A DNA stretch of 63,127 nucleotides from positions 1 through 63,127 of the forward strand of contig JALRKT010000004.1 of assembly GCA_023268805.1 (NCBI GenBank). The letters run 5' to 3'. Positions 3,271 through 60,840 of the stretch are shown here, one piece after another (the first letter of the stretch is position 1; each line of letters starts with the position of its first letter). The notes below the pieces were generated by a model that was not told the origin of the DNA, ran no database searches, and worked only from the letters and a program-made list of their open reading frames with translations. A program made the translations under genes and the position numbers. Source of the DNA: Bacilli bacterium (lineage in GTDB: Bacteria > Bacillota_I > Bacilli_A > RFN20 > CAG-826).

Positions 3271-3669
3271 ATGATGAATATTTTTTTCACCTTTCTATTG
3301 AGTGCACTTGTCTTCACGGTATTAGATTTATTTTGGCTCGTTAAAGTGGCTCCTCACCTTTATCGTCGCCATATTGGCCATCTCATGGCCGAAAAAGTTA
3401 ATCGAATCGGTGCGTTACTATTTTATGTTTTATACCATGTCGGACTTGTTGTATTTGTCCTTCTCCCTGCGCAAGGAAAACTTTTTGAAGGATGGTTATT
3501 GGGGAGTTTATTTGGACTCGTTACGTATGCAACCTATGATATAACAAACTTAGCGACGCTTAAAGCATGGCCGGTAAAAATTACGGTCATTGATTTGTTG
3601 TGGGGGACATTTTTGACGGGCGTTTCTACCGTGATTACGTTATGGCTCATGGGGGTTTTTGGTTTATGA
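3271..3669 (+). CDS. DUF2177-like small integral membrane protein
   Basis: About 132 aa with 4 TM helices. ATG at 3271 is preceded by GAGGG. The ORF-track TTG start at 3238 lies inside the upstream terminator, so I reject it. Confidence 0.6.
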   Translation: MMNIFFTFLLSALVFTVLDLFWLVKVAPHLYRRHIGHLMAEKVNRIGALLFYVLYHVGLVVFVLLPAQGKLFEGWLLGSLFGLVTYATYDITNLATLKAWPVKITVIDLLWGTFLTGVSTVITLWLMGVFGL

Positions 3670-4502
3670 TTGGTGTTTTAATTTTAACGGGACTTGTCAT
3701 CACCGTCAGTGTGATTCTCTTACATTTCACCATTTATTTTTTTAAAGCAGAAGCAAAAAATAATTATGGAATCATTGATATTGGTTGGGGACTTGGGTTT
3801 GTTTGGATTGCTTGGGCACTCATCCTTGTTCGGACCCAGCTTCTTGGCGTGAATAGTAATTTTCTTTCGTTAATCACCGTGCTCGTTACAACGATTTGGG
3901 GCGTGCGTTTATCTACCCATATTCGTCGTCGTAACGAAGGAAAACCAGAAGATTATCGTTACGTTGCGATGCGGGCAAAAATTCAACCTCCGTTGCGAAA
4001 ACTAAAAGGGTTTGTCAAAATTTTTCTTGTCCAAGCCCTCTTTATGTTTTTGATTGCCTGGGTCTTGATTGCCAATATTATGGTGTCGGGAAATGTGATT
4101 GAACCGTGGATGTATGGTCCACTTCTAGGGGGACTATTACTGTGGATGGTTGGCTTTTATTTTCAAGCGGTCGGCGACGCTCAATTAGCCCGTTTTAAAA
4201 AAAATCCAGTGAACAAAGGCAAACTCATGACCACCGGATTGTGGGCACTTACGCGGCACCCAAATTATGTCGGTGAAGTCTTTATGTGGTGGGGAATCAC
4301 CATCATGGGTTTTGGTAATGGATTTATCATTTCCATGCCTTGGTTGCCTTTCATCGCCATTTTTTCAGCACTTGTCGTCACATTTTTACTTCGGTATTTA
4401 TCCGGTGTTCCTTTATTAGAAAAAAGGATGGTTAACCATCCTGATTTTGCAGCCTATACGAAACGCACATCGATTTTCTTACCGTGGTTTCCTAAAAAAT
4501 AA
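3666..4502 (+). CDS. DUF1295 / steroid-5-alpha-reductase-like (ICMT-fold) membrane protein
   Basis: Polytopic, with the C-terminal 'LTRHPNYVGEVFMWWG' motif typical of DUF1295. ATG 3666 overlaps the upstream stop (ATGA). The longer ORF-track start at 3600 would overlap by 70 nt. Confidence 0.7.
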   Translation: MIGVLILTGLVITVSVILLHFTIYFFKAEAKNNYGIIDIGWGLGFVWIAWALILVRTQLLGVNSNFLSLITVLVTTIWGVRLSTHIRRRNEGKPEDYRYVAMRAKIQPPLRKLKGFVKIFLVQALFMFLIAWVLIANIMVSGNVIEPWMYGPLLGGLLLWMVGFYFQAVGDAQLARFKKNPVNKGKLMTTGLWALTRHPNYVGEVFMWWGITIMGFGNGFIISMPWLPFIAIFSALVVTFLLRYLSGVPLLEKRMVNHPDFAAYTKRTSIFLPWFPKK

Positions 4503-4503
4503 A

Positions 4504-4917
4504 TTAAAGCGGAATTGAAGAATTCAAAATAATGTGGGCGATGATAAGTCCCGTTATGATAAAGGGTAATATTTCGTGAATTTTATTCAAAACACGAATG
4601 TTGCCCTTTTTTTGTTCTTGTAAATAACCCGTAACACCTTGCGCGATTAATAAACCAATGAGGGTTCCTCCCGTTAAACTTGGGGAACCGGTGATCGAGA
4701 ATTGAAGGGCAGCATGGGCCAATGCGCTCAACAAGGCAAGGATGCCAAAGTAGCGATGGTTTTTTTGCAAAAATAATAAGATTTGTAAATCAAGCGACGT
4801 TTTCTTTTCCTTAAGCTTATTGCGCTTCACAACGGATGCTAACGTGAGCTGAACGAGTTTTCGTGTCATGCTCATCGCGATAAAAAAGACCGTAATAAAT
4901 CCTAATAATGGGCCCAT
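4504..4917 (-). CDS. Four-TM membrane protein with intramembrane His residues, unknown family
   Basis: 137 aa. 'HRYFGILALLSALAHAAL' and 'IIAHIIL' place His residues inside predicted helices. GGAGG lies upstream of the start. Confidence 0.55.
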   Translation of the reverse strand: MGPLLGFITVFFIAMSMTRKLVQLTLASVVKRNKLKEKKTSLDLQILLFLQKNHRYFGILALLSALAHAALQFSITGSPSLTGGTLIGLLIAQGVTGYLQEQKKGNIRVLNKIHEILPFIITGLIIAHIILNSSIPL

Positions 4918-4926: not shown

Positions 4927-5562
4927 TTAATCACGGAATTGTTCCGGATCAATAATGTGCTTCTGATACCATTTTATCACGGTTTGGATTTCATCACTTG
5001 AGAGTTGATGTCCGTGTTTAAACCACGCTAATTCGACCGTTGCTTTTTGTGTTTGAAAACGGTGCACAAGTTGATTGGTTTGCGCTTGCGTGACAATAGG
5101 ATCTTCGGTGCCTGCCGTCACTAAAATATCTACATCCTCGATCGGTGTAGGGACGACCTTGGGATCGATATCCATCGGATGCATTAAGATTGCCTGGCGA
5201 AAACTCATCGGTTTTTTTAACATCATTTGGGCAATCATATTGGCGCCATTAGAATAACCAACACCGAGGAGATCCTGGCGATCCAGCTGATATTGTTCGC
5301 ACGCTTTATTCAAAAATGCATCGAGTGCATCGACACGCATGCGGATGTCGTCATAATCAAAGACACCTTCTGCTAAGCGTTTAAAAAAACGGTTCATCCC
5401 AAACTCGCTTACATCACCCCGCAATGCTAAAACACTCGCCTCATGATCAATCATCTGCGCAATGCTTAAAAGGTCGTTTTCATTTCCGCCTGTTCCGTGA
5501 AAAAGCACCAGTGTGGGTCGTCGCGGATTGGTCCCCGGAATATATTTATGAATCATAAGCAT
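4927..5562 (-). CDS. Phospholipase/carboxylesterase-family alpha/beta hydrolase (MhqD/YodD-like)
   Basis: 'LVLFHGTGGNENDL', the 'GYSNGAN' nucleophile elbow and a C-terminal 'HGH'. ATG 5562 has GAGG 6 nt upstream. The ORF-track GTG at 5574 is part of that SD. Confidence 0.75.
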   Translation of the reverse strand: MLMIHKYIPGTNPRRPTLVLFHGTGGNENDLLSIAQMIDHEASVLALRGDVSEFGMNRFFKRLAEGVFDYDDIRMRVDALDAFLNKACEQYQLDRQDLLGVGYSNGANMIAQMMLKKPMSFRQAILMHPMDIDPKVVPTPIEDVDILVTAGTEDPIVTQAQTNQLVHRFQTQKATVELAWFKHGHQLSSDEIQTVIKWYQKHIIDPEQFRD

Positions 5563-5630
5563 TTTTCGCCTCACTTTTTATCAACGGATTTATACTAATA
5601 TTACCAATTATGGTGAAAAAAGGAGATTTT

Positions 5631-6455
5631 ATGAGCGCAAAAGTTGAATTGTCGTTCGATCAAAAAGTAGACAAACTCCTTGGTTTTAACAAAACCATGG
5701 GTCTTGTTCACTTAATCCAAGGGGTTCTCATGATGGCGTTTGCCTTCTTTGTGTATCCCAATATTTCCGAACAAGGGGCCTTTAATATCGATGTCATCGG
5801 TAATTACCTTGAGTTCGTTCCAGGTGAAGGGTTAGTCTTAACCGTCACAGACACGTTATTTCAATTACCTTTCTTACCGTTAACTGCAAGTTTCTTGCTC
5901 TTATCGGCTTTATTCCACTTCCTTATCGCCTTCCCTTTCAAGAAGAAATATCGTGAAGGTTTACGTGTCGGTATCAACCAATTCCGTTGGTATGAATATG
6001 CGTTATCGTCCTCTTTAATGATTGTCTTAATTTCTTCCTTATTCGGTGTTCGCGATGTGGCCGTCTTTGCCTTAATCGCATTAGCGAATGCGGCGATGAA
6101 CTTCTTTGGTTTAGATATGGAATTACTCAACGCAGGCGAATCCAAAGTCGGTAAGAAAATCAACTGGTTACCCTTTATCTTCGGGACCGTCGTTGGTCTT
6201 GCTCCTTGGGTTGCCATTGCCTTCTACATTGGGGTGAACCCCAATTTAGATGCTGTTCCTGGTTTCGTTTGGGCGATTTTAGCCACCTACTTTATCGCTT
6301 TCAACACCTTCCCCGTCAACATGCTTCTTCAATACTTAGGCGTCGGTAAATTTAAAGACTATCTTGTCGGTGAACGTGGTTATATCATCTTATCGTTAGT
6401 TGCGAAAACCATCTTAACCTGGCTCGTCCTCTTCGGTGCCTTCCAACCTTCCTAA
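5631..6455 (+). CDS. Heliorhodopsin (7-TM retinal-binding protein)
   Basis: Motif-by-motif match to heliorhodopsin 48C12, recalled from memory: 'GLVHLIQ', 'LSALFHF', 'FRWYEYALSSSLMIVLI' (Glu counterion) and 'GERGYIILSLVAKT' (Schiff-base Lys). SD AAAGGAG lies at 5619-5625. Confidence 0.88.
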   Translation: MSAKVELSFDQKVDKLLGFNKTMGLVHLIQGVLMMAFAFFVYPNISEQGAFNIDVIGNYLEFVPGEGLVLTVTDTLFQLPFLPLTASFLLLSALFHFLIAFPFKKKYREGLRVGINQFRWYEYALSSSLMIVLISSLFGVRDVAVFALIALANAAMNFFGLDMELLNAGESKVGKKINWLPFIFGTVVGLAPWVAIAFYIGVNPNLDAVPGFVWAILATYFIAFNTFPVNMLLQYLGVGKFKDYLVGERGYIILSLVAKTILTWLVLFGAFQPS

Positions 6456-6484
6456 CGAATCCCGTTAAAATAAGGTAAAATAAA

Positions 6485-6511
6485 AGCTAAGGGAAACCCT
6501 TAGCTTTTTTT
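6485..6511 (+). terminator. Rho-independent terminator/attenuator after heliorhodopsin, abutting the next start codon
   Basis: AGCTAAGGG-AAA-CCCTTAGCT plus a T7 run. The last T is the base before ATG 6512. Confidence 0.75.
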
Positions 6512-7465
6512 ATGAATCATCCTCAAAAACCCGAAATATATCAAGGCTTCGGCCAAACCAATCGCTACTTTGAAGGCTGGTACTTTAAACATGTGACGGC
6601 GGATCAAACGTTCTCACTTGCGCTCATTCCTGGTATCTCGCTTTCTAAGAAAGATCCGCATGCCTTTGTCCAAGCATTTTTAGTCGATAACGGGGAAGAA
6701 CCACGGCTTGATTATCATTATTTTCGTTTTCCCACCTCGGATTTTTCTGCCGATAAGAAACGCTTTCACGTAAAAGTAGGAACCAATACATTCTCATTAG
6801 ATCAATCCCGTATTGATTTGAAAAATGACGATGTTCACTTGCGTGGTGACTTCCATTATCAAGGTCGTATTCCGCTTCCAAAAAACATTTTGAATCCTTC
6901 CATAATGGGACCGTTTGCCTATCTCCCAGCGATGGAATGTTACCATGGCGTACTTTCGCTAAATCATTCGATCACGGGATCGCTATCTGTGAATGATGAC
7001 GTGATTGAATTTACAAGCGGTAAGGGTTATTTAGAAAAGGATTGGGGGCGTTCATTCCCTGAAAATTATGTGTGGGTTCAAGCGAATCATTTCTCGGAAG
7101 ACAATATTTCTTTTTTCTTTTCTTATGCGAAGATTCCTTATTTAGGGTTAAAATTCCTTGGTGTTATTGGTCATCTTTATGTCGCAGGTCAACATTACCG
7201 ATTTGCAACGTATAATGGCGCCAAAGTCATCCAAGAAGTGATTACCCAACGTTCTGGTCACTATATTCTCAAGAAAGGTTCTTTGATGCTTGAATTTGAA
7301 GCGACGATTGATCGCGTTGCCTCCCTTAAATCACCAAAATTAGGGACGATGGACCATCAAATTAAAGAAGGATTATCCGGGCATGTTTCCTTACGATTAA
7401 CAAAAGGGAAACGCCTGCTATATCAAGGGGTCAGCAGCTCGGCTGGCATTGAGTTAATGCGATGA
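6512..7465 (+). CDS. Tocopherol-cyclase-family (VTE1-like) protein
   Basis: 'NRYFEGWYFKH' is near the N-terminus and 'GKGYLEKDWGRSFPENYVWVQANHF' is mid-protein. Both are hallmark tocopherol-cyclase motifs. Confidence 0.7.
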   Translation: MNHPQKPEIYQGFGQTNRYFEGWYFKHVTADQTFSLALIPGISLSKKDPHAFVQAFLVDNGEEPRLDYHYFRFPTSDFSADKKRFHVKVGTNTFSLDQSRIDLKNDDVHLRGDFHYQGRIPLPKNILNPSIMGPFAYLPAMECYHGVLSLNHSITGSLSVNDDVIEFTSGKGYLEKDWGRSFPENYVWVQANHFSEDNISFFFSYAKIPYLGLKFLGVIGHLYVAGQHYRFATYNGAKVIQEVITQRSGHYILKKGSLMLEFEATIDRVASLKSPKLGTMDHQIKEGLSGHVSLRLTKGKRLLYQGVSSSAGIELMR

Positions 7466-8403
7466 AAAAGAAAATAAAATGGGGGCGGATCATGGCCCTA
7501 ACGCTTTATGTTATCACGGTGGGATTTTGGACTGCTTCGGGGTTTAAAACCTCAGAAATCATACAAACCCGTCAATACGTTTACGAAGCGTATGCGAAAG
7601 AACTTCAACTTGATGAAGAGCGCACCATCTTTTATCGCGAAGCTGGGGATACCAATGCGCCTGTGATGCTCTTTATTCATGGATTTTTAGGATCAAGTTA
7701 TGATTTTATTCACGTTTTTGAGCATTTTAAATCCACCCATCATGTCATCGCGGTTGATTTAATAGGTTTTGGACTATCGAGTAAACCTCGTAATTATGAT
7801 TATGGTAAAGAAAATCAAGCGCGAACGGTGCTTGAATTTATCGAAGCCAAGCAATTAAACGATATTACCTTGATGGCCCATTCCATGGGAGGGGAGGTTT
7901 CCTTTCATCTTACCCACCTTGCTCCTGAAAAAATTTCCCAACTTATGTTGGTCGGGTCTGCAGGATACTATCCGGAAGGGGCAATGACCAATCCTCCTAG
8001 TTTACCTCTTTTCATGTACAAAGAAGTGGTTCAAAACTATTACATTCAACGAGCCTTCTTTTTTACCGCCTACTCAGAATACGAACGGAAAAATGGGCTT
8101 ATTACAAATGAAGATTTTGATGAAATGTATGTTGTCAATCGTACGATTCCCCCGGATATACTTAAACAATTTGGTGAGGATAATGATTCGCAAAATATGC
8201 AAGCGATATTCGATACAATCACGCAACCGATCCTGCTTCTTTGGGGTGAATTTGATGGATTTATTCCCCTTGCCACCGGGGAATTACTCCTACAAAGTTT
8301 GGGAGACAATGCCCATCTTGTCATGATGCCCAATGCGGGTCATCTTCCTTTTGATACCTTTTTTGAATTATTTATTGAACATGTGGAGGGATTTATCGCA
8401 TGA
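7462..8403 (+). CDS. Membrane-anchored alpha/beta hydrolase
   Basis: N-terminal TM helix, 'LFIHGFLGS', 'AHSMGG' nucleophile elbow and C-terminal 'NAGHLP'. ATGA overlap with the upstream gene. Confidence 0.8.
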   Translation: MKKKIKWGRIMALTLYVITVGFWTASGFKTSEIIQTRQYVYEAYAKELQLDEERTIFYREAGDTNAPVMLFIHGFLGSSYDFIHVFEHFKSTHHVIAVDLIGFGLSSKPRNYDYGKENQARTVLEFIEAKQLNDITLMAHSMGGEVSFHLTHLAPEKISQLMLVGSAGYYPEGAMTNPPSLPLFMYKEVVQNYYIQRAFFFTAYSEYERKNGLITNEDFDEMYVVNRTIPPDILKQFGEDNDSQNMQAIFDTITQPILLLWGEFDGFIPLATGELLLQSLGDNAHLVMMPNAGHLPFDTFFELFIEHVEGFIA

Positions 8404-8948
8404 AATATGTTTATCTTAAGCAAAAAGTATTCGCCATTCGGGATGAATACAAAGTGTATGATGAAGTTCAAAATGTCTTGTATGAGGCAAAAGGGAAATT
8501 CTTTTCGCTGCATAGTCATAAAGATATTTTTAAAGTCGATGATCCCACCCCCATTTATTCGATTCGACAAAAAGTTTTAACCTTTGTTCCTACGTATTTT
8601 TTATACGATCGTCAGAATGCCGTTGTCGCCAAGCTTGCCCAACAACTTCTTGCCTTTTTTGGGGTACGTTTTAACCTCTTAATTCAAGGGAAAAAATATG
8701 AAATTCAAGGCGATTTCTTTGGTTATAATTATCGAATTGCCGATGAAAATGGTACTGTGGTACAAATTCAAAAGAAGTTTTTAGCCTGGGGAGACACGTA
8801 TCAAGTGGCCATTGAAGATGGCTTTGATGAGGCCCTTGCCGTGAGTGTAGTGCTAATGATTGATGATTTTATTGATGATAAGCGTCGCCAAGCTGCTGCC
8901 GGTGGTATTGCCGCTTCATCTCATTCCTCAGGAGGTAGAAATCGATGA
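8400..8948 (+). CDS. LURP-one-related / DUF567 (YxjI-like, tubby/scramblase fold) protein
   Basis: 'LKQKVFAIRDEYKVYDE' and repeated beta-strand periodicity typical of DUF567. ATGA overlaps on both sides. Confidence 0.6.
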   Translation: MKYVYLKQKVFAIRDEYKVYDEVQNVLYEAKGKFFSLHSHKDIFKVDDPTPIYSIRQKVLTFVPTYFLYDRQNAVVAKLAQQLLAFFGVRFNLLIQGKKYEIQGDFFGYNYRIADENGTVVQIQKKFLAWGDTYQVAIEDGFDEALAVSVVLMIDDFIDDKRRQAAAGGIAASSHSSGGRNR

Positions 8949-10705
8949 AATTAATGCAACGTTGGTTGAATAACTTTTTATTAAAACCGTTGCAAGGAAG
9001 TTGGCAACGCTTCCCTGTCACATTAATTTATTCTTTTCTTTTAGGATTTTTGATGGTATTGAATGAAGACCTTGAACTAAACTGGTTGACCGATGTTTCT
9101 CAAGCCTTGTTCATTTTTCTTCCGTTAACGTTGAGTGTGACTCTCACAAGGGAAACGTTTGCGTGGTGGCGCTGGTCGAAGATCATCGATATTCTCACCG
9201 TAATCCTTCTCACCGGGCTTTATTTTGGTTGGTTGCAACTCGAAGCGAATCTTGCCGTGGGCTTCTTTCGCTTTTCAAATTTACTTTTTGGGTTTTATTT
9301 ATTGCCTTTATTTATCCGATATTTCCATGCGAATAAGGCGATCGAAAAACCCATCATTGATGGCATTAATGTTATTTTTACCGCGCTTGTTTATGCCTTA
9401 TTCCTCTTTGTCGGTGTCGCCATTATTTTATTGAGCACGAATATTTTGTTTAATTTATCGATTGCCTTTACCGTCTACTCGAATGTGCTTATCTTATCGC
9501 TTACGTATGTTTTTGTTCCCACATGGTTGAATGGCTTTCCTCGAGGAAACGAAAAAATCGAGGAAGGATCGTACTCCGTTATCTGGGAACGTATCTTCCT
9601 ATTTGTGCTTGCACCTGTCATCAGTGTCTTTATGATTTTTATCGTCATCTACTTGCTGACGGGTCTATTTCAAAGTGAACAATATAACGCGGGAATTTAT
9701 ACGTTATCAACCTTGGTGATTGCTTTTGCAGGGATTTCAACGCATGTCTCCACCCGTCGGTTTGTCGAACGTTATCCTTTAATAAAGCTTTTTCAAAACC
9801 TTTTCCCCATCGTTTTACTCGTGATTATGTTTGGGTATTATGTCGAACTCATTCGTGTGGGGATTGTCTTTGGATTTTCCATGGGTATCGTCCTCCAACT
9901 CATGATGGGAATATGGCCGATCAGTTACGCGATTTGGGTGCTCAAAAGACATCCTCAAGCCACCCAACGCGCCTTATTAACCCTTGTGGGCATTTATGTG
10001 TTCGCGGCCGTGATGCCTTTCGTCAATGGGGTTGGCATTGCCCGATTCATTTTACAAGGTCAATTTAACGCGGCGATTGAACGGCTCGATATGCTTGATG
10101 AAGAAGGGGAATTGATGGTCAAAAACGACCTTACACAAGAAGAATACAATCAACTTTTTTCGATTGTCACGTCCATGAATGAAATTGGCCTTGCTTCCTT
10201 TTCGGGCATTCCGGAATCGTATGAACACCCCTTTGATTTTCCCACGACCTTTGGGACGTATACCGATGACCCGGTCGTCGAATTTGTGGATTATTATTTT
10301 TCTTTATCGAATCAAATCTTAGATTTTTCTTCCTTTGACTATGAAACATTCTTATTTGTGCCTTCGATCATGGATCTTGTGGAAACACCTTACACCAGCG
10401 ACAACGTGACCATGTCACTGACCATGGAGGAAGAAACCGATTTACAACTTGATTGGAATATCACCTATGGTGATGAAGCCGTTACGATTGGTATTCTTGA
10501 GGAAATGATTGCCGTTTTGTTAGCGCGGCATTTCCCCGGTGAAGATATCCAACAAGCAGACTACACGGCAGTAAACCCTGAAGACTTACTCATTTCCTTC
10601 ACTTTTGAAACGTTTTCGATGGATATATGGGTGCAATCACTTATTTATTTTGATGGGTACTATCGTAATTTTGCAATGGGGGCCTATGTAGGTTTCTTCC
10701 GATGA
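8945..10705 (+). CDS. Large polytopic membrane protein (about 12 TM, possibly DUF4153-like) with a ~200-aa acidic C-terminal soluble domain
   Basis: 586 aa. Hydrophobic helices run through about residue 380, followed by an Asp/Glu-rich globular region. It is translationally coupled on both sides. Confidence 0.6.
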   Translation: MKLMQRWLNNFLLKPLQGSWQRFPVTLIYSFLLGFLMVLNEDLELNWLTDVSQALFIFLPLTLSVTLTRETFAWWRWSKIIDILTVILLTGLYFGWLQLEANLAVGFFRFSNLLFGFYLLPLFIRYFHANKAIEKPIIDGINVIFTALVYALFLFVGVAIILLSTNILFNLSIAFTVYSNVLILSLTYVFVPTWLNGFPRGNEKIEEGSYSVIWERIFLFVLAPVISVFMIFIVIYLLTGLFQSEQYNAGIYTLSTLVIAFAGISTHVSTRRFVERYPLIKLFQNLFPIVLLVIMFGYYVELIRVGIVFGFSMGIVLQLMMGIWPISYAIWVLKRHPQATQRALLTLVGIYVFAAVMPFVNGVGIARFILQGQFNAAIERLDMLDEEGELMVKNDLTQEEYNQLFSIVTSMNEIGLASFSGIPESYEHPFDFPTTFGTYTDDPVVEFVDYYFSLSNQILDFSSFDYETFLFVPSIMDLVETPYTSDNVTMSLTMEEETDLQLDWNITYGDEAVTIGILEEMIAVLLARHFPGEDIQQADYTAVNPEDLLISFTFETFSMDIWVQSLIYFDGYYRNFAMGAYVGFFR

Positions 10706-11703
10706 GTGGGTTGCTTTTTACCCCTTTTCAATGGGGTTCTCTTTCGCTTAAAAATCGCCTTGTCATGGCCCCGATGTGTATGTATAGTGCCAACGAAGAA
10801 GGACACGTACAACCGTTTCATCTCGCGCATTATCCTGCTCGTGCGTATGGCGGTGTGAGTTTAGTCATTGTTGAAGCCACCGCGGTTGAATCACGGGGTC
10901 GCATTTCGATTCACGATTTAGGTATTTATGATGATGCTCAACTAGCCGGATTACATCAACTTGTAAGTGCGGTTCATCATGGTGGCGCCAAAATTGCGAT
11001 TCAACTCGCTCACGCAGGAAAAAAATCAGGCGATATGTCCCAAGAAGCTATTTCTCCGTCTGCCATTCCGTTTACGCCTGAACACCGGATGCCCCGAGCG
11101 ATGACAAAAGAAGATATTCAAACCGTCATTCATCACTTCCGATTGGCTGCCCATCGTGCTCAACAAGCAGGATTTGATGGCGTTGAAATTCATGGGGCCC
11201 ATGGTTACCTCATTAATCAGTTTTTATCGCCATTAACGAATCATCGAACCGATGAATATGGTGGATCCATCGAAAATCGTACGCGTTTTTTAATTGAAAT
11301 TTTACAGGCAGTATCCACGGAATTTCATGGGGCCATTTGGGTCCGATTATCAGTAGAAGAATACGCCGAAGGCGGTCATCATGTGGAAGAAACCCTTCGC
11401 ATGTTGGATCTTATTAAACCTTACGTAGTTGGCGTTAATGTGAGTAGTGGGGGTGCAGTCCCTGTTTCTATTCAATCGTATCCGGGTTACCAACTTGGTT
11501 ATGCGAAAGCGATTGAAACGCAGGGTATTCCTACGATTGGGGGAGGCCTCGTCACCACCTACGAACAAATCGAAGATGCATTAGGTCAAGGCATATCGCT
11601 TATTTATCTAGGTCGAGAACTCTTGTTAAATCCTTACTTTTATTTACAGCTCGTTAAAAAGTATCATCCTCTCGACATGATTGCCCCGTACAAACGCGGA
11701 TAA
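10702..11703 (+). CDS. namA: NADPH dehydrogenase, Old Yellow Enzyme family (YqjM/NamA type)
   Basis: 'LKNRLVMAPMCMYS', 'IQLAHAGKK' and 'GVEIHGAHGYLINQFLSP' closely match B. subtilis YqjM. Confidence 0.88.
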   Translation: MSGLLFTPFQWGSLSLKNRLVMAPMCMYSANEEGHVQPFHLAHYPARAYGGVSLVIVEATAVESRGRISIHDLGIYDDAQLAGLHQLVSAVHHGGAKIAIQLAHAGKKSGDMSQEAISPSAIPFTPEHRMPRAMTKEDIQTVIHHFRLAAHRAQQAGFDGVEIHGAHGYLINQFLSPLTNHRTDEYGGSIENRTRFLIEILQAVSTEFHGAIWVRLSVEEYAEGGHHVEETLRMLDLIKPYVVGVNVSSGGAVPVSIQSYPGYQLGYAKAIETQGIPTIGGGLVTTYEQIEDALGQGISLIYLGRELLLNPYFYLQLVKKYHPLDMIAPYKRG

Positions 11704-11707
11704 GAAA

Positions 11708-11725
11708 AGCACCCTTTCGGGTGCT
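11708..11725 (-). terminator. Hairpin terminator for the minus-strand ABC operon
   Basis: AGCACCC-TTTC-GGGTGCT. The T-run lies only on the minus-strand side (GCTTTTC). Confidence 0.55.
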
Positions 11726-11864
11726 AGTCTTCGTCGTTTTCTGGGTTAGGTTGGTTGCTCGGTTTCTTTTTAATCATGGCATTAAAGACTTTGAGCTTTA
11801 AATAACCAATCCCGACGACCGCGACCGCGATGAGTACCCAGACCCACCAATCAAGTCCAAACAT
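11724..11864 (-). CDS. Unlisted 46-aa single-TM protein (MFGLDWWVWVLIAVAVVGIGYLKLKVFNAMIKKKPSNQPNPENDED)
   Basis: ATG 3 nt after the upstream permease stop, a Trp-rich TM helix and a charged tail. Its stop lies inside the terminator hairpin. It is below the 60-aa cutoff of the ORF track. Confidence 0.45.
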   Translation of the reverse strand: MFGLDWWVWVLIAVAVVGIGYLKLKVFNAMIKKKPSNQPNPENDED

Positions 11865-11867
11865 GGT

Positions 11868-12683
11868 TTAAAATCCCCTTTCTGCGCTTGCACGCTTGAC
11901 AAAATAACGAATGGAAATAACTGCAAGGAAGATCATATAGACCGCGCCAATTACTAAATAAAGGGTATAGGAGAGATCATCAGGACCTTGGGTTTGAAAC
12001 GCGAGATTTAAAAAGGCTTTCACGGGCCAAAAGTTGGGGGTGATGCCTAACAAATATTGTTTCCAATCCCCAAAAGCTTCTAATAATACAAGGGCAGGAA
12101 TAATGAAGAGGATGCCTGCGGTTTTCATCAACGCAAACCCTTCAATTTTATTTTTAGCAATCGCTGCGATCATCGCCCCAATTGTCGGTGTGAGGAGACT
12201 ACTAACCGCACTAAAAAGCAGTAAATCAAGGAAAGAAATTTCTGATAGTCCAAACCGAATCCCGTTAAAGGAATACGAATACGCATCGGAAAAAAAGAGG
12301 ATGATGCCGCCCACCATGACCAGTGTTCCTAAAAAACCAATTACATAGGTGTAAAGACTCTTAAACCATGCATAGCCTTGAACGGTCATGGGTGAGACTG
12401 CAATCGCTTGAATCGTTTTCTCATCTTTGTTTTCTAAGAGTGAGAATCCGAGTAAAATACCCGAGATCATGCCACCGACGGCGAGAATAACCACAAAAAT
12501 AATTGTTAGACTTAATGCGTATTCCCCGGAAGATGTTTCTAGACCGGTTCGTTCTAAAATCGAAGGAATGGCCCATCCCATAAAAAACAACATAAAAACA
12601 GGATAAATGAACATAAATAAGTTCATAGGGTCACGTAAGAGTGTTTTGAGTTCATAGCCTAGTAAAGCAAACCAGGATTTCAT
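11868..12683 (-). CDS. ABC-2 type exporter permease
   Basis: 271 aa, 6 TM, overlaps the upstream permease by 4 nt. Confidence 0.75.
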   Translation of the reverse strand: MKSWFALLGYELKTLLRDPMNLFMFIYPVFMLFFMGWAIPSILERTGLETSSGEYALSLTIIFVVILAVGGMISGILLGFSLLENKDEKTIQAIAVSPMTVQGYAWFKSLYTYVIGFLGTLVMVGGIILFFSDAYSYSFNGIRFGLSEISFLDLLLFSAVSSLLTPTIGAMIAAIAKNKIEGFALMKTAGILFIIPALVLLEAFGDWKQYLLGITPNFWPVKAFLNLAFQTQGPDDLSYTLYLVIGAVYMIFLAVISIRYFVKRASAERGF

Positions 12684-13396
12684 GCGCGTAAAGCCTCCTT
12701 TTTAAAGCGGGGATAAACATAAAGTGGAAAAATAAGCCCAGGAATGGCGACTAAAAAGAACATAGCGAGAAGGATCATTGTGATATCACGGTCGATGAGT
12801 AACGACTGAATGATGTATTGAGCGGCGTAACTTGGGGATAAAAACCCAACCCATTGAAATGACTCAGGAATAAGGTCTAAGGGAATAAGAATAGCGGGTA
12901 AATAAAACAAAAGTGCGACGCCCATATATTTGACGAGTAAACTCATAAAATCCGGACTTAAAAACATTAAGATAAAGCCAACACTAATGTGCGCAATCGT
13001 TGCCAAGATAATGTAAGCAAGGGCGAGGAGTAAAGGAATCCAGTAACTATGAATGAGTCCCATCGTCAGACTGATGAGGGTGATGGAAACAAGGGAAGGC
13101 ACGAGACTAGCAAGTATTTTTGCAACGAGAACCTTCCTAGGTGAAACAGGACTCACAAACAACGCTTGAAGCGTGCCTTCTTGTTTTTCAAAATAATAAG
13201 ACGAACCGATGAGGACAATGGTCATTAATCCTGCATCAAGGGCGAGCAGCTGTGGCATGAGTAATTCAGCCTCTTGAAAGGAAGTAAACGCCAAGACAAA
13301 GACCCAAATCAACGAGACAAACAATCCAAAATAAATAATTTTATAATGGAATAAACGTAAGACTTCGGATTTAAGTAAAAGCAACAGTTTAAGCAT
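12680..13396 (-). CDS. ABC-2 type exporter permease
   Basis: 238 aa, 6 TM, overlaps the ATPase gene by 8 nt. Confidence 0.75.
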   Translation of the reverse strand: MLKLLLLLKSEVLRLFHYKIIYFGLFVSLIWVFVLAFTSFQEAELLMPQLLALDAGLMTIVLIGSSYYFEKQEGTLQALFVSPVSPRKVLVAKILASLVPSLVSITLISLTMGLIHSYWIPLLLALAYIILATIAHISVGFILMFLSPDFMSLLVKYMGVALLFYLPAILIPLDLIPESFQWVGFLSPSYAAQYIIQSLLIDRDITMILLAMFFLVAIPGLIFPLYVYPRFKKEALRA

Positions 13397-14258
13397 GATC
13401 TTCCCCCGTAATCAAAATAAAGATTTTATCTAAAGAGGTTTCTTGACTATGCATGGTCACGATACGGTCTTCTTGAATCAATTGTTGAAAGAAGGCATCA
13501 CTGGCAAGTTTCTCCATGGGGAAAACGTGTTGTTTTAATCCTTCTTTTTCTTGGTATTCTACTTTAATTTCTCGAACACCATATTTAAGTTTTAATGCTT
13601 TCGGATTGGAGGCTTCTAATAATTTCCCATTCGCGATAAACGCCACTTCATCACATAATTCTTCGACATCCCCCATTAAATGGGTTGTGATAATGATGGT
13701 TTTACCTTTGGCTTTCTCTTCTAAAATAATGTCTTTTAAAATGCGGGCGTTGGCCGGATCCAGTCCGTTGGTGGGTTCATCTAAAAAGAGAACATCGCCA
13801 TCGTTTAAAAGTGCTTTGACAAAATTAAGGCGCATTTTCATGCCTTTGGAATATTGACCCACCTGTTGATGCATCGCATTGCCCAGACCGACCCGAATCA
13901 TGAGTTTTTCAAAATCAATGTGACGTTGATACAACGACGCAAAAAACTTCATGTTTTCATAACCTGAAAGTTTGTTGAAGTGAACAGGCATTTCAAAACC
14001 GACACCGATGCGTTCGTAATAGGCTTGTCCCAATTCATTTAACGATTGCCCAAAAAATCGAACATCGCCTTGGTAATCATTGAGTAACTTGATAAGAATT
14101 TTTTGTGTCGTTGATTTTCCTGCTCCAGAAGGTCCTAATAACCCAAAGATGGAACCTTTTGGAATTTTTAAAGAAATGTCATGAAGGACATTCCCCCTTT
14201 TTGGGGAGTAAGCAAAACTTAACTGATTAATTTCAAAAGCGTATTCCATCTTAATCAC
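13389..14258 (-). CDS. ABC transporter ATP-binding protein
   Basis: Walker A 'GPSGAGKST', signature 'YSKGMKMRL' and Walker B 'VLFLDEPTNGLD'. Confidence 0.9.
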   Translation of the reverse strand: MIKMEYAFEINQLSFAYSPKRGNVLHDISLKIPKGSIFGLLGPSGAGKSTTQKILIKLLNDYQGDVRFFGQSLNELGQAYYERIGVGFEMPVHFNKLSGYENMKFFASLYQRHIDFEKLMIRVGLGNAMHQQVGQYSKGMKMRLNFVKALLNDGDVLFLDEPTNGLDPANARILKDIILEEKAKGKTIIITTHLMGDVEELCDEVAFIANGKLLEASNPKALKLKYGVREIKVEYQEKEGLKQHVFPMEKLASDAFFQQLIQEDRIVTMHSQETSLDKIFILITGEDHA

Positions 14259-14781
14259 CCTCCTTTAGGGAAATATGTTTGATGTATTCAAAAGCTTTAC
14301 GGAATTCTTGGAAAATGGTGGGAGCATCTGCCCCATCCAATAATCGTTGCCGATATCCTAAGGCCATCACGTAAAACCATTGATAAATAAATTGAGGATC
14401 GACATCGTCTTTAAAGAGAGTTAAATCTTTTTCGGTAAAGGGATAAGGGGGGAGTTCTGGCGCTTTTTCTAAGTCGATGAGAATGAATTCGAAAAGATGT
14501 GGTGTCGCAAGTTCAAGTTTATATTTTGCGATTTGGAGGTCATACAGTTTCTCAAAGAAATGCCCTTGATTTTGATGGAACGTGTCTTGAAGATGTTGAA
14601 TGAGAGAAAGTGCATACGTTCGCGTCGCTTCATACAATGCCGCTTTGGTTTTAAAATGATGAAATAATAGCGGTTTGCTCACTCCAGCATGACGAGCAAT
14701 ATCGGCGATACTTGCCTTCTTTTTTCCCAACGTTGAAAAGATTTCAATCGCGGATTTCATGATGGAAAGTTTTGCGGACAT
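14251..14781 (-). CDS. TetR/AcrR-family transcriptional regulator (probably on a leaderless mRNA)
   Basis: The HTH 'SIADIARHAGVSKPLLFHHFKTK' lies close to the N-terminus if translation starts at ATG 14781. A consensus promoter ends 6 nt upstream of that ATG. The 44-codon ORF-track extension is rejected. Confidence 0.85.
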   Translation of the reverse strand: MSAKLSIMKSAIEIFSTLGKKKASIADIARHAGVSKPLLFHHFKTKAALYEATRTYALSLIQHLQDTFHQNQGHFFEKLYDLQIAKYKLELATPHLFEFILIDLEKAPELPPYPFTEKDLTLFKDDVDPQFIYQWFYVMALGYRQRLLDGADAPTIFQEFRKAFEYIKHISLKEGD

Positions 14782-14787
14782 AACCCT

Positions 14788-14816
14788 ATTATAAAGCGAC
14801 TGACCGATTCGGTCAA
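14788..14816 (-). promoter_or_regulatory. Consensus sigma-A promoter of the TetR/ABC operon
   Basis: On the minus strand: TTGACC (14816-14811), 17-nt spacer, TATAAT (14793-14788). The A of the ATG lies 7 nt after the -10 box. Confidence 0.7.
14801..14815. promoter_or_regulatory. Perfect 15-bp palindrome TGACCGA-T-TCGGTCA, candidate TetR operator
   Basis: Seven-bp arms that are exact reverse complements. It overlaps the -35 box and spacer of the TetR promoter and lies upstream of the divergent VTC gene. Confidence 0.7.
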
Positions 14817-14853
14817 TATGTTCATTTACATTCTTTTTTGCTACACTACAAGT

Positions 14854-15588
14854 ATGGCTGAAACCAACGTCTTTAAGCGGTACGAGAAAAAATTTGTCAT
14901 TACCCGTCATCAATTCGAAGGGCTTTTACAAACCATTCGTCGACACATGAAATATGACCCTTATTGTCTGGAAGGAAATACGTATCATCTTCGTAATGTT
15001 TATTACGACACAATTGATCATCAACTTATCTCTATCTCCTTGTTAAAACCTGATTTCAAGGAAAAATTACGGATTCGTAAGTATGGGGTTCAAGGGGATG
15101 GGACGAACTTAGTTTTTCTTGAAGTGAAACGAAAAATTCAAGGTGTTGTGACCAAACGTCGCGCTTCCATGAGTTTGACTGAAATCGATCAATTTATGCT
15201 GAAAGGTGAAATTCCGAGTCGAACGGATTATTATTCACAACAAATTTTAAAAGAACTTCATTATATGACTCATGTATATGAACTCAAAAAAGCGGTCTTC
15301 ATTGAATATGATCGTTTAGCATTTTTTGATAAAAAAGATGAAGAATTCAGAGTGACTTTTGATCAAAACATTTATACTAGATATGACAATTTTGATTTTG
15401 AAAGCCCAGATCGCGGTGTTTCTTTACTCAAAGAGGATCAAGTATTAATGGAAGTCAAAGTGGGGGACGCGATGCCTCTATGGTTTGCAAAAGCACTAAG
15501 TCGCCACAACATCTATCTTCATTCGTTTTCTAAGTATGGAAAAGCGTATGAACTTGAATTAGCAAAGGAGATTCGCAACGATGTTTGA
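14854..15588 (+). CDS. VTC-domain (CYTH-like, polyphosphate-polymerase-domain) protein
   Basis: 'FKRYEKKFVI', 'YYDT', 'KLRIRKY' and 'VFLEVKRK' match the bacterial VTC domain pattern. I take the start at MAETN. The ATG at 14818 is an alternative. Confidence 0.7.
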   Translation: MAETNVFKRYEKKFVITRHQFEGLLQTIRRHMKYDPYCLEGNTYHLRNVYYDTIDHQLISISLLKPDFKEKLRIRKYGVQGDGTNLVFLEVKRKIQGVVTKRRASMSLTEIDQFMLKGEIPSRTDYYSQQILKELHYMTHVYELKKAVFIEYDRLAFFDKKDEEFRVTFDQNIYTRYDNFDFESPDRGVSLLKEDQVLMEVKVGDAMPLWFAKALSRHNIYLHSFSKYGKAYELELAKEIRNDV

Positions 15589-17145: not shown

Positions 17146-18103
17146 TAAAGCGCCAAAATTCAAAGAATTTCGCGTGAAAAAAGCAGGAATTCTCATGGAT
17201 TTTTTACGGGAATCACTTCCCAAAATGAGTCGAAATAATATCAAGTCATTACTTCGGCATAAGCAAGTTGCCGTTGAAGGGGTCCGTGTATCACGCTTTG
17301 ATTTTCCCTTGGCCGCGAATGACATGGTCATTGTCTTTTCCGAACGAAAGGTCGAATTGAAAGTATCACGACCTAAAATTATTTATGAAGATGATGAATT
17401 CTTGGTGATTGATAAGCCAAGTGGCCTATTAAGTATTGCCTCGGATAAAGAAAAAACAAAAACCGCCATCAAAGTGATGATGGAATATGTTCAAGACAAA
17501 AATCCGAATGCTCGCCTCTATGTGACCCACCGTATTGACCGCGATACCTCGGGGATTCTACTTTTCTCGAAACGGGAAGATCTTCGAAATATCCTTCAAG
17601 ATCGATGGAACGAACTGGTGACCAAACGCGGCTATTTTGCCATTGTTGAAGGGGTTCCCAAAGAAAAGAAGAAAACCATTAAATCATGGTTACGTCAGAC
17701 GACCACTCAACTCATGTATTCTCACTATGAAGAAGATGATGAAGGCCAAGAAGCGATTACACATTATGAAGTTAAACAAACTTCCGGCAATCATGCGTTA
17801 TTAGACGTACTGATTGATACTGGAAGAAAAAATCAAATTCGAGTTCATCTTAATGATTTGGGACACCCGATTATTGGTGATAAAAAATACCATAGTGAAA
17901 CCGATCCGTTAAAGCGATTAGGCCTTCACGCGTATGCCTTAGAATTCCATCATCCGATCACGCAAAAAAAGCTTAAATTCTATGCCCCTATTCCGAAATT
18001 ATTTCATCAGTTCATGAGTCAAACAAATACGCCATCCCCTCAGGACAAACCTAGAAAAAAACCTTATAATAAAAACCATGGAACTCGTCGAGCTAAGCGG
18101 TAA
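17114..18103 (+). CDS. RluA-family pseudouridine synthase with an S4 domain and a basic C-terminal tail
   Basis: Catalytic 'HRIDRDTSGILLF' and 'GRKNQIRVH'. An alternative start is ATG 17195. Confidence 0.85.
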   Translation: MQNSNPPSRNNKAPKFKEFRVKKAGILMDFLRESLPKMSRNNIKSLLRHKQVAVEGVRVSRFDFPLAANDMVIVFSERKVELKVSRPKIIYEDDEFLVIDKPSGLLSIASDKEKTKTAIKVMMEYVQDKNPNARLYVTHRIDRDTSGILLFSKREDLRNILQDRWNELVTKRGYFAIVEGVPKEKKKTIKSWLRQTTTQLMYSHYEEDDEGQEAITHYEVKQTSGNHALLDVLIDTGRKNQIRVHLNDLGHPIIGDKKYHSETDPLKRLGLHAYALEFHHPITQKKLKFYAPIPKLFHQFMSQTNTPSPQDKPRKKPYNKNHGTRRAKR

Positions 18104-21098
18104 ATTTCAACGAAGGTGGTTACGGCATACACGCCGACTTACTATCCAATGGAATCAGCCTGATTCCTTTTTGCGTTATGTTTTCTTCCTCGCTTTTATG
18201 GGCGTAATGTTCTTTGCGTATGCACTAGTTACCAATTTATTTACCATTCCATTAAGTGGGGATTATGTGTTACAGCAAATCCCGTTTTATTTGAATGGGT
18301 ATGATGATTGGTGGCATTTTTTTCGCACGGGTGAATTCGTTTTATGGGATTCATCGACCTACCTTGGTGCGAACCATATCGGTTCTAATTCTTTTTATTA
18401 TTATTTAAATCCATTCTTTCTACCTATTTTGCTTTTCCCACGAGCATTAGTCCCTCAAGGGATGGCCATCTTGATGATCGGCAAAATGGTTTTAGCCTCA
18501 TTAACGTTTCGCATTTATTTAAAATATCAAGGTGTTTCTGAAACCAATAGTCGTTTATTCTCTATGGCCTATGGATTTTCGGGTTGGATGGTCTATTACC
18601 TTTGGTTTAATCACTTCATGGAAGTTGCGGTGGTGTTTCCCCTTGTTTTACTTGGGATTGAAACTCTCTTAAAAGAAAAGAAGATTATCCTTTTAGCCTC
18701 CAGTCTGTTTTTGATGGGCATTACGAATTATTTCTTCCTTGTATCGACGAGTTTTACGGCGTTCTTCTACGCCGTCTTTCGTTATTTTCAAACGTTACCC
18801 CGTCGTTCATGGCAAGATTCATTGAAGATAATTGGACTTGGTTTTGTTGGCTTTTTGAGTGGACTGTTGATGTCAGGATTTGTCTTTTTACCTTCTGTTT
18901 TGGTTGCCGTCACGTCCGACCGTGTAGGTGGAGCGTGGTATCTTGATCGACTTATTGCCACCTGGACAGCAGAAGATTGGGAACAATTTTGGCGATTATT
19001 AACCGTCTGGCAAAATGCGTCTTTGACAGAAGAACCGTACAATAAGTTTTATCCCCTTGTTTCGTTTTTATTTCCAACAGTGAGCAATCGATCTTCGACC
19101 TTATTCCGTACGTCGAGTTACGATAATACGATTTCTAGTCTATTCATGTATACACCCTTGACGAAGCTCGTTGTTCCTTCGTAGCTACACTCCATCAAAC
19201 AAAAGAAAGATTCGCATTTCATCGCCTTGGGTATATTGCTATTTATGTTATTTACGCCGATTACCTATCAATTAGTTCATGGCTTTACCATTGACTACGG
19301 CCGTTGGCAAATCTTTGTCGTCACCATTGCCATTGCTTATGTCGCTTTACAATTTGAACATCGCCATGCGTTTAAGGTGTGGTATTTTGATGTCTCATTT
19401 GCGGTGATTTTTGGATTAGCGTTTTATGCCTTAGCCGTCGCTCAAGCCAATGAAAATCAGTATTTCTTTACGGCGTTAGAAGAACGCGAATGGGTGGCAA
19501 TTGGAACCCTTCTTTACATGATTGGTGTTTATTTATATTTCCGAAAACAGTATATGTCCAAAACGTTGACGGAAATCATGAAAAATGCCATTTTTTTTGA
19601 ATCGATTATTATGGGTGCTTTGATTATGAATATCCATGGATTAGTAAGCTATCCCAACCGAATTGACAATGGCCTTACCCTCATCCGTGATCAGCGGGAT
19701 GTGATTACTTCCATTAATCGTGAAGATGACGATTTATTCCGTATTTTCAATTTGAATAGTGGCGAATCAACGAATCTTGGGATGCGTCTAGGCTATAACG
19801 GGGTGACCGCTTTCCACTCCCTTTACAATTTCCATGTCAGTGATTTTAATGCCTGGTCGCACATGAATTACAACTATCGAGGATGGTCAATGGGATATCA
19901 TGAAAAACGTTATAACCTTGATACGTTTTTAGGCATCAAATATTACCTGATGCAAAATGTTTATGATTCGTATACGCGGTCGGCTGAACCAAATCCAGAC
20001 ACAGGCTATTATGATTATTTGTATCAAAATGTTCCACATGGTTTTACCAAAAATTATGAATTATCAACCGAATTAAATTCCGTTTATGAAAATCAAAACT
20101 TTATCGAAGGAGGGTTTAGTTTTGATACCCTCATTCGCACGAATAAAATCGAAGGGGCATCGATTTATGATTTTTTTGCGAACACCACTACGGAAGTTCT
20201 TACCAACGAAGAGGCGTATCTTACTGGGGGTATTCTTGATAATGAGGATGTTTTAAGCGTTCTAGAACAAGCACCTCATCTCCAAGTTCAAGATATACCG
20301 AATCGTAATATCGCACGCGTTTTTGCGAATGTTGAGTTTGTCACATGTCCTACGATTTTTAATCCGAATCTATTAAATGATTTAGAAGCTTGTGAAACCG
20401 CCTTGATCCCTCCTAATTCCACACTCAGTAATTTCCAAGGCGAATTTAAAACCATTCATTTAACACCGACAACAGGCAACCATTTTGCAGAGGAAACCTC
20501 CTTTTTTGCCTTACAACTTCGACTTTCTCATTTTTCCACCGTTTATTTCTTTGATGAGAATAACGAGATTATCGTTCGGGATGCCCATAGTTTTGTCAAT
20601 ACATCATTCAAGTTTATGCGCGGTTATTACCCCGATCGCCCGGTGAGCCGGATAGTGATCGTTCCTAAGTTTTCTTCAGGAACGATGTTTTATCCGGTTT
20701 TATACCGAGAAGCGTATTCTGATTATCTTGAACGCCTCAATTTATTAAATGCATATCCTTTAGAACGATTTACGCATACAAAAAACACCATGGAATTTGA
20801 AACGAATTATGATCAATCACGATTTATCGTCTTGCAAACTCCGTATGATCCGGGTTGGAATGTCACCTATTGGAACGATCAAGGTCAATCGTTTACTACA
20901 CCTGTGTACCGTGCACAAGGTGGCTTTATCGGGTTTGTTTCAGGAGAAGGATTTACACGTTATCGCGTTCATTATTGGACCCCGTACTTAACAGAAGGCT
21001 TATTACTCTCGTTATCGGGAGCTGTTTTATTGGGTGGTGTCACTGGCGCAGCGTGGTATATTCAACGAAAAAAAGACGACGTTAGTTCCGGTGCATAA
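18078..21098 (+). pseudogene. YfhO-family (GT-C fold) membrane glycosyltransferase interrupted by one in-frame TAG at 19182-19184
   Basis: ORFs 18078-19184 and 19227-21098 are in the same frame. The 14 codons between them contain no other stop. Together they give a ~1000-aa YfhO architecture: 'GDYVLQQIPFY', many TM helices, a large extracytoplasmic domain and a terminal TM helix. Confidence 0.65.
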
Positions 21099-56629: not shown

Positions 56630-56681
56630 CACACCTCGCTTTCGAAATTGTTCACTGACGACTCATCATGAAAGGAGAAAA

Positions 56682-59285: not shown

Positions 59286-59300
59286 GGAGGTAAGGAATCG

Positions 59301-60791: not shown

Positions 60792-60813
60792 CTATTTCCT
60801 TTGTTACAATGAA

Positions 60814-60840
60814 CCTAGGGGAGATTATCCCCTAGGTTTT
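60814..60840 (+). terminator. Stem-loop (partial terminator/stabiliser) after the binding-protein gene
   Basis: Perfect 9-bp stem CCTAGGGGA-GATTA-TCCCCTAGG followed by T4. Confidence 0.6.

Follow-up and report, generated by a model that had tools for sequence, protein, structure and literature searches.

The 63,127-nucleotide stretch of DNA analyzed here (the window: contig JALRKT010000004.1, positions 1 to 63,127 of the forward strand, from the Bacilli bacterium assembly GCA_023268805.1) encodes on its + strand, at 5631..6455, a 274-residue protein with seven transmembrane (TM) segments which, judged from profile, structural and residue comparisons, is a genuine and intact heliorhodopsin (HeR). 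In the preferred reading, which is held with moderate confidence, the protein is a slow-cycling light sensor that scavenges its retinal, lies in an island of genes for photo-oxidative stress and transmits its signal to a partner protein through direct contact. The gene directly downstream encodes a tocopherol-cyclase-like (TocCyc-like) protein, and it is this pairing that constitutes the one lead with some novelty, the rest being one more member of an established family, in a context already surveyed.

The open reading frame (ORF) runs from ATG 5631 to the TAA stop at 6453-6455. An in-frame ATG at 5610 would give a longer, 281-residue version; however, the start is likely ATG 5631 and not 5610, because a Shine-Dalgarno sequence, AAGGAG, can be read 5 nt upstream of the former (5620..5625, + strand) and HeR homologues measure 274-276 residues. 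The product matches the Pfam family PF18761 with E=1.8e-82 and 276.7 bits (cut-off 26.7) over profile positions 3-241 of 242, and the NCBIfam HeR equivalog NF038020 with 253.4 bits (cut-off 100); on these scores a chance match to the heliorhodopsin family is excluded. It also aligns over residues 12-273, essentially end to end, with the solved heliorhodopsins (PDB 9vfc, 6su3 and 6is6). A preliminary description of this DNA, made from its letters, had read the gene as an intact heliorhodopsin with the signature His, Glu and Lys residues in place, and both the Pfam profile search and the alignment to 48C12 and TaHeR that it proposed bear this out.

All four of the residues that it had picked out, with the Glu and Lys at the codons it gave, fall in the corresponding columns of 48C12 and TaHeR. 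The Schiff-base Lys, K259 (SLVAKT, codon 6405-6407), lies in helix 7 in the column of K241 of 48C12 and K238 of TaHeR, where both of these read SLVAKS and Cv06 reads SLVSKS, and the counterion E122 (FRWYEYALSS, codon 5994-5996) lies in the helix 3 Glu column, aligned with FRWVEYSLSS of 48C12 (E107) and RWFEYSISAS of TaHeR. H27 (GLVHLIQ, codon 5709-5711) and H96 (LSALFHF, codon 5916-5918) occupy the His columns of helices 1 and 2 (H23 and H80 of 48C12); some HeRs are without these histidines (Chazan et al., bioRxiv 10.1101/2021.02.16.431466). In the full alignment mapping, N20, H27, Q30, S92, H96, N116, W120, E122, Y123, E164, S255 and K259 of the window protein correspond to N16, H23, Q26, S76, H80, N101, W105, E107, Y108, E149, S237 and K241 of 48C12, respectively. 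The loops between the seven segments carry 14 Lys and Arg residues on the N-terminal side of the membrane and 0 on the opposite side, from which the positive-inside rule predicts the inverted orientation, with a cytoplasmic N-terminus, that defines the family.

In comparing the protein to solved heliorhodopsins, 48C12 (from a freshwater actinobacterial fosmid; PDB 6su3/6uh3) is aligned at E=1.5e-41 and has all of its residues listed above kept in the window HeR. The window HeR differs in an extracellular loop between helices 1 and 2 that is approximately 12 residues longer, in having M231 for Q213, P228 for A210 and T186 for C166, and in a host that is Bacilli/Acholeplasma-like and not an actinobacterium. 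TaHeR (from a Thermoplasmatales archaeon; PDB 6is6; E=1.1e-40) agrees in the two His positions, the counterion Glu and the Lys of the Schiff base; however, it is archaeal and its loops are shorter. The best match to a solved structure is Cv06 of the alga Chromera velia (PDB 9vfc; E=1.9e-50; bioRxiv 10.1101/2025.11.27.691015), whose helix 3 stretch GINQFRWYEYALSSSLMI is identical to that of the window HeR and which also has Met at the position of Q213 in 48C12. Cv06 differs in being a eukaryotic protein of 317 residues, with an N-terminal extension, a 9-residue insert before helix 7 and C216 in place of T186. Both proteins hold a fenestration motif, defined in 48C12 numbering by aromatics at 162 and 206, small residues at 166 and 210, Gly 169 and Asn 207: F182/T186/G189/F224/N225/P228 of the window HeR correspond to F212/C216/G219/F254/N255/P258 of Cv06, such that F, G, F, N and P are the same, the Pro included. 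Most HeRs have been proposed to bind external xanthophylls via this lateral fenestration, a hypothesis put forward in a preprint (bioRxiv 10.1101/2025.11.27.691015), and by its sequence the window HeR belongs with the proposed carotenoid-binding "two-antenna" HeRs.

Between the window and orthologous loci, the HeR is 86-91% identical and the flanking genes 35-74%; the nonsynonymous substitution rate (dN) is 0.09-0.15 for the HeR compared to 0.21-0.60 for the TocCyc-like, hydrolase, LURP-one-related (LOR), DUF1295 and DUF2177 genes in the same genome pairs, with dN alone compared between genes as the synonymous rate (dS) is saturated (>2 or undefined) and omega unreliable. These values indicate strong purifying selection on the HeR. 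The protein is 99% identical to one on a contig titled "MAG: Bacillota bacterium SFB_3D_100_73", and the next relatives (75-91%) are found in freshwater and brackish metagenome-assembled genomes (MAGs) titled Bacilli, Bacillota, Acholeplasmataceae, Izemoplasmatales and Mycoplasmatota, followed by a tier at 50-56% which includes complete Acholeplasmataceae genomes and Clostridia. Record titles of the close relatives place the host among the monoderms. A protein collection holds 3768 matches to the HeR at E<=1e-20, and close relatives occur on dozens of contigs from many samples; by this measure the HeR belongs to an abundant environmental gene family and is no rarity. On one Acholeplasmatales contig (locus L040), a second, divergent heliorhodopsin-like match with 46% identity is present at ~8840-9600, approximately 8.8 kb from the first, and some relatives may therefore have two HeR genes.

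Upstream of the HeR, on the same strand, are genes for a DUF2177 membrane protein (3274..3669; 131-residue gene call, longest ORF from 3238; PF09945, E=2.5e-39) and a steroid-5-alpha-reductase/ICMT-like DUF1295 membrane protein (3666..4502; 278-residue gene call, longest ORF from 3600; PF06966, E=3.8e-57). On the - strand follow a 137-residue membrane protein (4504..4917), which is cytochrome-b561-like by synteny and a weak match to PF01292 (E=4e-6, below cut-off), and a carboxylesterase/dienelactone-hydrolase-like protein divergent from the HeR (4927..5562; 211-residue gene call, longest ORF to 5574; Pfam DLH and Abhydrolase_2). Downstream of the HeR, all on the + strand, five overlapping genes form a run: the TocCyc-like gene (6512..7465), an alpha/beta hydrolase whose start overlaps its end (7462..8403; PF00561, E=1.5e-30), a LOR family gene (8400..8948; PF04525, E=7.7e-14), a gene for a 586-residue multi-TM protein (8945..10705), and at the end an old-yellow-enzyme type NADPH:flavin oxidoreductase (10702..11703; PF00724, E=1.3e-76). 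The last is NamA-like, matching NF010047 at E=2.1e-117 and 392 bits, under the equivalog cut-off of 431. The 586-residue protein has by hydropathy about 10 hydrophobic segments and a C-terminal soluble domain, is found in nine related loci at 34-41% identity, and has no match in Pfam, NCBIfam or the PDB; nor did NCBIfam give names for the TocCyc-like, DUF2177, DUF1295, LOR and cytochrome-b561-like proteins. Two contigs with an identical HeR (loci L077, 71-2399, and L078, 105-2433) reach past the left edge of the window, and there an ABC-3 metal transporter, Fur, a SOUL-domain protein and an Fe/Mn superoxide dismutase are encoded just before the nrdEF-nrdI genes.

This arrangement recurs. Neighbors were collected within 7 kb of the HeR by tblastn and all-against-all ORF clustering in 74 HeR loci obtained from a scan of species-representative genomes; as many of these loci are short, the counts are minimum values. 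The TocCyc-like gene is present in 22 of the 74 (21 co-oriented, with a median offset of +878 that places it directly downstream), DUF1295 in 21, paired with DUF2177 (also 21), the esterase in 16, the alpha/beta hydrolase and the cytochrome-b561-like gene in 13 each, photolyase in 12, LOR and arginine deiminase in 11 each, CrtI in eight and SQS_PSY in seven. The clade of the window has the order DUF2177-DUF1295, then cytochrome-b561-like and esterase genes on the reverse strand, then HeR-TocCyc-hydrolase-LOR-586 aa-old yellow enzyme. A sister clade of Acholeplasmataceae-titled MAGs (L016/L079, L012, L018-L020 and L032-L033) has DUF2177-DUF1295, then photolyase, SQS_PSY and CrtI on the reverse strand, then HeR-TocCyc, arginine deiminase and photolyase-DPRP-TMEM164, so that photolyase and carotenoid genes occupy the position held in the window by the cytochrome-b561-like and esterase genes. 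One sister locus (L079, 4921-16673) is a compact "light island" which includes two photolyases, the photolyase-related DPRP, a TMEM164-family membrane protein, and CrtB-like and CrtI proteins; the 503-residue protein of this clade belongs to the phytoene desaturase family (TIGR02734, 433 bits, cut-off 238), and the 305-residue protein beside it resembles CrtB most closely. In a more distant tier (L044 and L046-L048), whose HeRs are 51-53% identical to the sister-clade HeR and 52-56% to that of the window, DUF2177, photolyase and DUF1295 are again found upstream of the HeR.

Most members of the published HeR neighbor groups are also seen at this locus. DUF2177 and DegV were found to be characteristic neighbors over thousands of HeR loci, and SOUL, photolyase and tocopherol cyclase were listed among oxidative-stress neighbors (Chazan et al., bioRxiv 10.1101/2021.02.16.431466); another survey described ten neighbor groups, including alpha/beta hydrolase, DUF2177, photolyase, glutamine synthetase and ABC transporters (PMC11109279). 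However, DegV and glutamine synthetase, which are prominent elsewhere, are not adjacent to the window HeR, and the HeR/TocCyc-like pair with its retention in Acholeplasmatales was not singled out in these surveys. The earlier suggestion that the gene sits among membrane and redox genes thus holds, and can be put more specifically as a recurrent, published HeR neighborhood of DUF2177, tocopherol cyclase and alpha/beta hydrolase, with photolyase in relatives. In Chlamydomonas, DUF2177, DUF1295, SOUL proteins and ABC-2 transporters belong to one regulon, which singlet oxygen induces under the control of SAK1 (PMC4067076) and which by analogy ties the window neighbors independently to photo-oxidative stress. 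HeRs have also been linked to oxidative-stress genes more generally (bioRxiv 10.1101/2021.02.16.431466) and proposed to be light switches that mitigate oxidative stress, with carotenoid and photolyase genes beside some of them (Bulzu et al., PMC8612252).

The source of the retinal was sought in Pfam scans covering essentially all ORFs of at least 100 residues across the 63 kb. No carotenoid- or retinal-synthesis family of the kinds looked for (crtE/B/I/Y, blh/brp) was found, nor any type-1 or second rhodopsin, and tblastn with the CrtI, CrtB-like and photolyase proteins of the sister locus gave nothing anywhere in the window. The absence that had been noted from the sequence is therefore confirmed; its presentation as a peculiarity of this locus does not stand, as blh is rare next to HeR genes and genome-wide accompanies HeR mostly where another rhodopsin is present (Chazan et al., bioRxiv 10.1101/2021.02.16.431466). 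A possible crtN/crtP-type (C30) carotenoid cluster at ~45-51 kb, consisting of genes for 484, 498 and 442 residues, was rejected when Pfam identified them as an amino-acid permease and glycine dehydrogenase subunits. A missing chromophore pathway nearby is the rule for heliorhodopsins and no anomaly. From the rarity of blh, an unknown retinal route was inferred by Chazan et al. (bioRxiv 10.1101/2021.02.16.431466), and the scavenging of external retinal is among the proposals made for other blh-less rhodopsin carriers, the Saccharibacteria. As no retinal route was found in the window, the most likely source of the chromophore is the surroundings of the cell or else some pathway still to be discovered, which is also what has been proposed for the majority of heliorhodopsin carriers.

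The TocCyc-like protein, a soluble protein of 317 residues, matches PF14249 with E=7e-20 and 71.8 bits (cut-off 26.7), with only its C-terminal 186 residues (130-315) covered; it has no NCBIfam match, and nothing was hit when its sequence profile was run against the chains of the PDB. An AlphaFold2 model built with 37 homologs has a predicted local distance difference test score (pLDDT) of 93.2 and a predicted template modeling score (pTM) of 0.90, and is nearly all beta, forming a double beta-barrel. Foldseek searches of the PDB with this model (E=7e-10 to 9e-7, TM-scores 0.5-0.65) returned AttH (2ich), the fungal decalin-forming cyclases/Diels-Alderases Fsa2, Phm7 and CghA, kievitone hydratase and 25-phosphosteroid lyase; no solved tocopherol cyclase was among the fold matches or the PDB sequence-profile results. 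By its profile match and its modeled fold, the protein belongs to the PF14249 family. The matched double-barrel enzymes hold lipophilic prenyl, polyene or steroid substrates and hydrate, cyclize or eliminate at C-C double bonds, and tocopherol cyclase and the carotenoid 1,2-hydratase CrtC perform the same kind of double-bond protonation chemistry. No prenylquinol-synthesis genes were seen in the window.

A protein search with the TocCyc-like sequence brought up named homologs in Acholeplasma laidlawii, A. granularum and Peloplasma aerotolerans; the Peloplasma locus has a photolyase gene and then HeR-TocCyc. In A. laidlawii (LS483439.1; locus L082, 10001-11876), a TocCyc-family gene is followed on the same strand by a 269-residue heliorhodopsin (11067-11876) that is 56% identical to the window HeR over 267 residues. 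As in the window, the two genes adjoin and are co-oriented; however, their order is inverted, the flanks are the unrelated HARE-HTH and CTP synthase genes, and DUF2177 and DUF1295 genes are both absent within 10 kb of the HeR. A. laidlawii is the nearest culturable model for the window HeR, and in the literature searched no heliorhodopsin-Acholeplasma paper was found beyond one passing mention, and none discussing the A. laidlawii HeR. Among 80 metagenomic TocCyc-like loci, an HeR lies immediately upstream in ten, all with a TocCyc-like protein at least 44% identical to that of the window, and CrtI was present only in HeR-containing loci. The sequence comparisons thus indicate a genuine HeR/TocCyc link that does not extend beyond a single subfamily and clade.

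As the preliminary description had it, the HeR has its own Shine-Dalgarno sequence (given above) and its own terminator. An intrinsic-terminator-like hairpin on the + strand (6482..6511; core stem GCTAAGGG / CCCTTAGC), located by scanning and folding at -19.7 kcal/mol (z=-4.97 vs shuffles), ends in a U-run that abuts the next ATG. Of the 21 same-strand HeR->TocCyc loci, 19 have a hairpin and T-run separating the two genes, and the stem sequences differ from one clade to the other. Loci of the window clade show no Shine-Dalgarno sequence here, the U-run reaching right up to the TocCyc-like start codon, while in the sister clade AGGAG follows the hairpin. On this evidence, the HeR and TocCyc-like genes are probably expressed at different levels and do not form a simple operon. 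By eye, a TATACT is seen before the HeR at 5591-5596, and a TG-extended -10 is conserved in sister loci.

In the mechanism preferred here, all-trans-retinal would be linked to K259 of the HeR through a protonated Schiff base, for which E122 would serve as the only counterion. The host, a freshwater bacterium of the Bacilli that is uncultured and akin to Acholeplasmataceae and Izemoplasmatales, would take up this retinal from outside. The protein would act as a slow-cycling light sensor and not as a pump, within an island that would comprise DUF2177-DUF1295, the TocCyc-like enzyme, the alpha/beta hydrolase, the old yellow enzyme and an ABC-2 exporter, with SOUL and superoxide dismutase genes just upstream of the window and photolyases and carotenoid genes in relatives. 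The light signal would then probably be passed by direct contact to a partner protein, for which the adjacent TocCyc-like enzyme is the best candidate. Of all this, the comparisons show the family, the key residues, the predicted topology, the strong purifying selection and the conserved neighbors, whereas the scavenging of retinal, the sensory role and the choice of partner are inferred.

Several points weigh against this reading. The role given to the protein comes from sequence comparison and not from experiment, and the stress roles of its neighbors are taken from family names and an algal regulon. Approximately half of the close HeR relatives, in Izemoplasma-type loci, are without TocCyc, DUF2177 or DUF1295 genes nearby, and in the 80 metagenomic loci TocCyc-like homologs with 43% identity or less to that of the window never adjoin an HeR; the association is for these reasons clade-limited and could in part be inherited gene order. 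The terminator-like hairpin separates the HeR from the TocCyc-like gene, such that the two may not be strictly co-transcribed, and a scan for a sigma-70-like promoter before the HeR found none, with counts not above those of shuffles. The pathway search covers 63 kb, and retinal genes elsewhere in the genome are possible.

The alternative that survives best, though it is clearly less probable than not and is offered tentatively, takes the HeR and the TocCyc-like enzyme as a dedicated two-gene module kept together through rearrangements in Acholeplasma-type bacteria. The enzyme may act on an isoprenoid or polyene double bond and so make or modify a lipid ligand of the HeR (a carotenoid antenna or a step of the retinal route), or the rhodopsin may gate the activity of the enzyme by light. 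The adjacency and shared strand in 21 of 22 loci speak for such a module, as does the survival of the pair through at least four flank contexts and the inversion of its order in A. laidlawii. The modeled fold (pLDDT 93), that of AttH, kievitone hydratase and the decalin cyclases with their lipophilic prenyl and polyene substrates, would suit the chemistry, the pair has CrtB-like and CrtI genes beside it in the sister clade, and the fenestration motif of the HeR is one proposed to bind carotenoids; other HeRs regulate enzymes, as is reported for glutamine synthetase (PMC9529153). However, nearly every locus has the hairpin between the genes, TocCyc-like genes that are more distant are neither linked to HeR nor beside crt genes, and in the window clade the pair persists with no crt gene found in the 63 kb. 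Tocopherol cyclase is also found near proton pumps and has been read as an oxidative-stress gene (Chazan et al., bioRxiv 10.1101/2021.02.16.431466), and both the substrate of the enzyme and its contact with the HeR are conjectural.

It is more doubtful that the HeR regulates a partner of an already reported class, i.e. glutamine synthetase, photolyase or an ABC transporter. An HeR is reported to bind and regulate glutamine synthetase (PMC9529153), light-dependent regulation of an ABC transporter by an HeR has been shown, and groups of such partners have been published (PMC11109279). The window does encode a glutamine synthetase (glnA, 40272-41606, - strand) and an ABC-2 exporter with a TetR regulator (11868-14913, on the strand opposite to the HeR), and photolyases flank the HeR in sister clades. 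However, glnA is 34 kb away on the minus strand, which does not give the HeR-glutamine synthetase operon of the AbHeR/AbGS type; the ABC genes are 5.4 kb off and of the ABC-2 type, compared to the heterodimeric multidrug resistance type that has been studied; and neither the Pfam scans nor tblastn found a photolyase in the window.

A light-driven or light-gated ion transporter, as some viral heliorhodopsins are, is very unlikely: the fold is the same and ion transport has been demonstrated in members of the viral subfamily, but the window HeR has 48C12-type residues and the fenestration motif, the latter entirely lacking in that transporting subfamily, and its closest relatives are bacterial. 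Least credible is a relic, a chromophore-less apoprotein without a light function in this lineage, which the absence of retinal and carotenoid genes from the 63 kb and of the sister clade's carotenoid and photolyase genes from this position might suggest, as no gene of the locus is better conserved than the HeR, which has a dN 3-4 times lower than that of its neighbors, keeps every functional residue and is found on many contigs from many samples.

Elsewhere in the window, Pfam identifies a class Ib ribonucleotide reductase with NrdI, polyphosphate-related VTC/DUF4956 genes, a set of housekeeping genes (DNA polymerase III subunits, RecR, Tmk, RF1, RF2, SecA, UvrB and FolD), an ECF sigma factor, a Y-family polymerase and the glycine cleavage system; large probable surface proteins are encoded as well. 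The RF2 gene (33230-34340) has a classical programmed +1 frameshift, in which a short ORF from ATG 33230, overlapping the SecA stop, leads into CTT TGA C at 33302-33308 and continues in the frame of the ORF at 33294-34340 with its PCRF and RF-1 domains. A YfhO-family membrane protein (18078-21098) is in two ORFs, 18078-19184 (profile positions 2-243) and 19227-21098 (315-835), with a TAG at 19182-19184 between them, which may reflect a pseudogene, a fault in the assembly or a gene that is genuinely split. On the - strand at 41675-43427, the 175-residue ECF-type sigma factor is followed by a 412-residue single-pass membrane protein without a family match, which has a long Asp/His-rich C-terminal tail (HDHNHDDDDDDDDDDNDHDDES) and is presumably an anti-sigma factor. 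Four large consecutive genes at 53585-63083 (1014, 889, 496 and 743 residues), mostly without family matches, probably encode surface proteins; only the second (889 residues) has CBM_4_9 carbohydrate-binding and Ig-like domains.

Heliorhodopsins are abundant in sunlit waters and their cellular role is settled in few cases, so that one more intact copy adds little. What this locus gives is a contrast between a clade with carotenoid and photolyase genes beside the HeR and a clade without them at that place but with DUF2177-DUF1295 and the TocCyc-like gene, which is a natural contrast for the source of retinal and turns a vague oxidative-stress neighborhood into a partner hypothesis that can be tested in the culturable A. 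laidlawii. If the two genes do work together, the enzyme could supply or modify a hydroxy-carotenoid that the cell makes as an antenna, or could take part in the blh-independent retinal route that has long been sought; a TocCyc-like enzyme switched by light would add a further class to the heliorhodopsin effectors, one that shields membranes from photo-oxidation.

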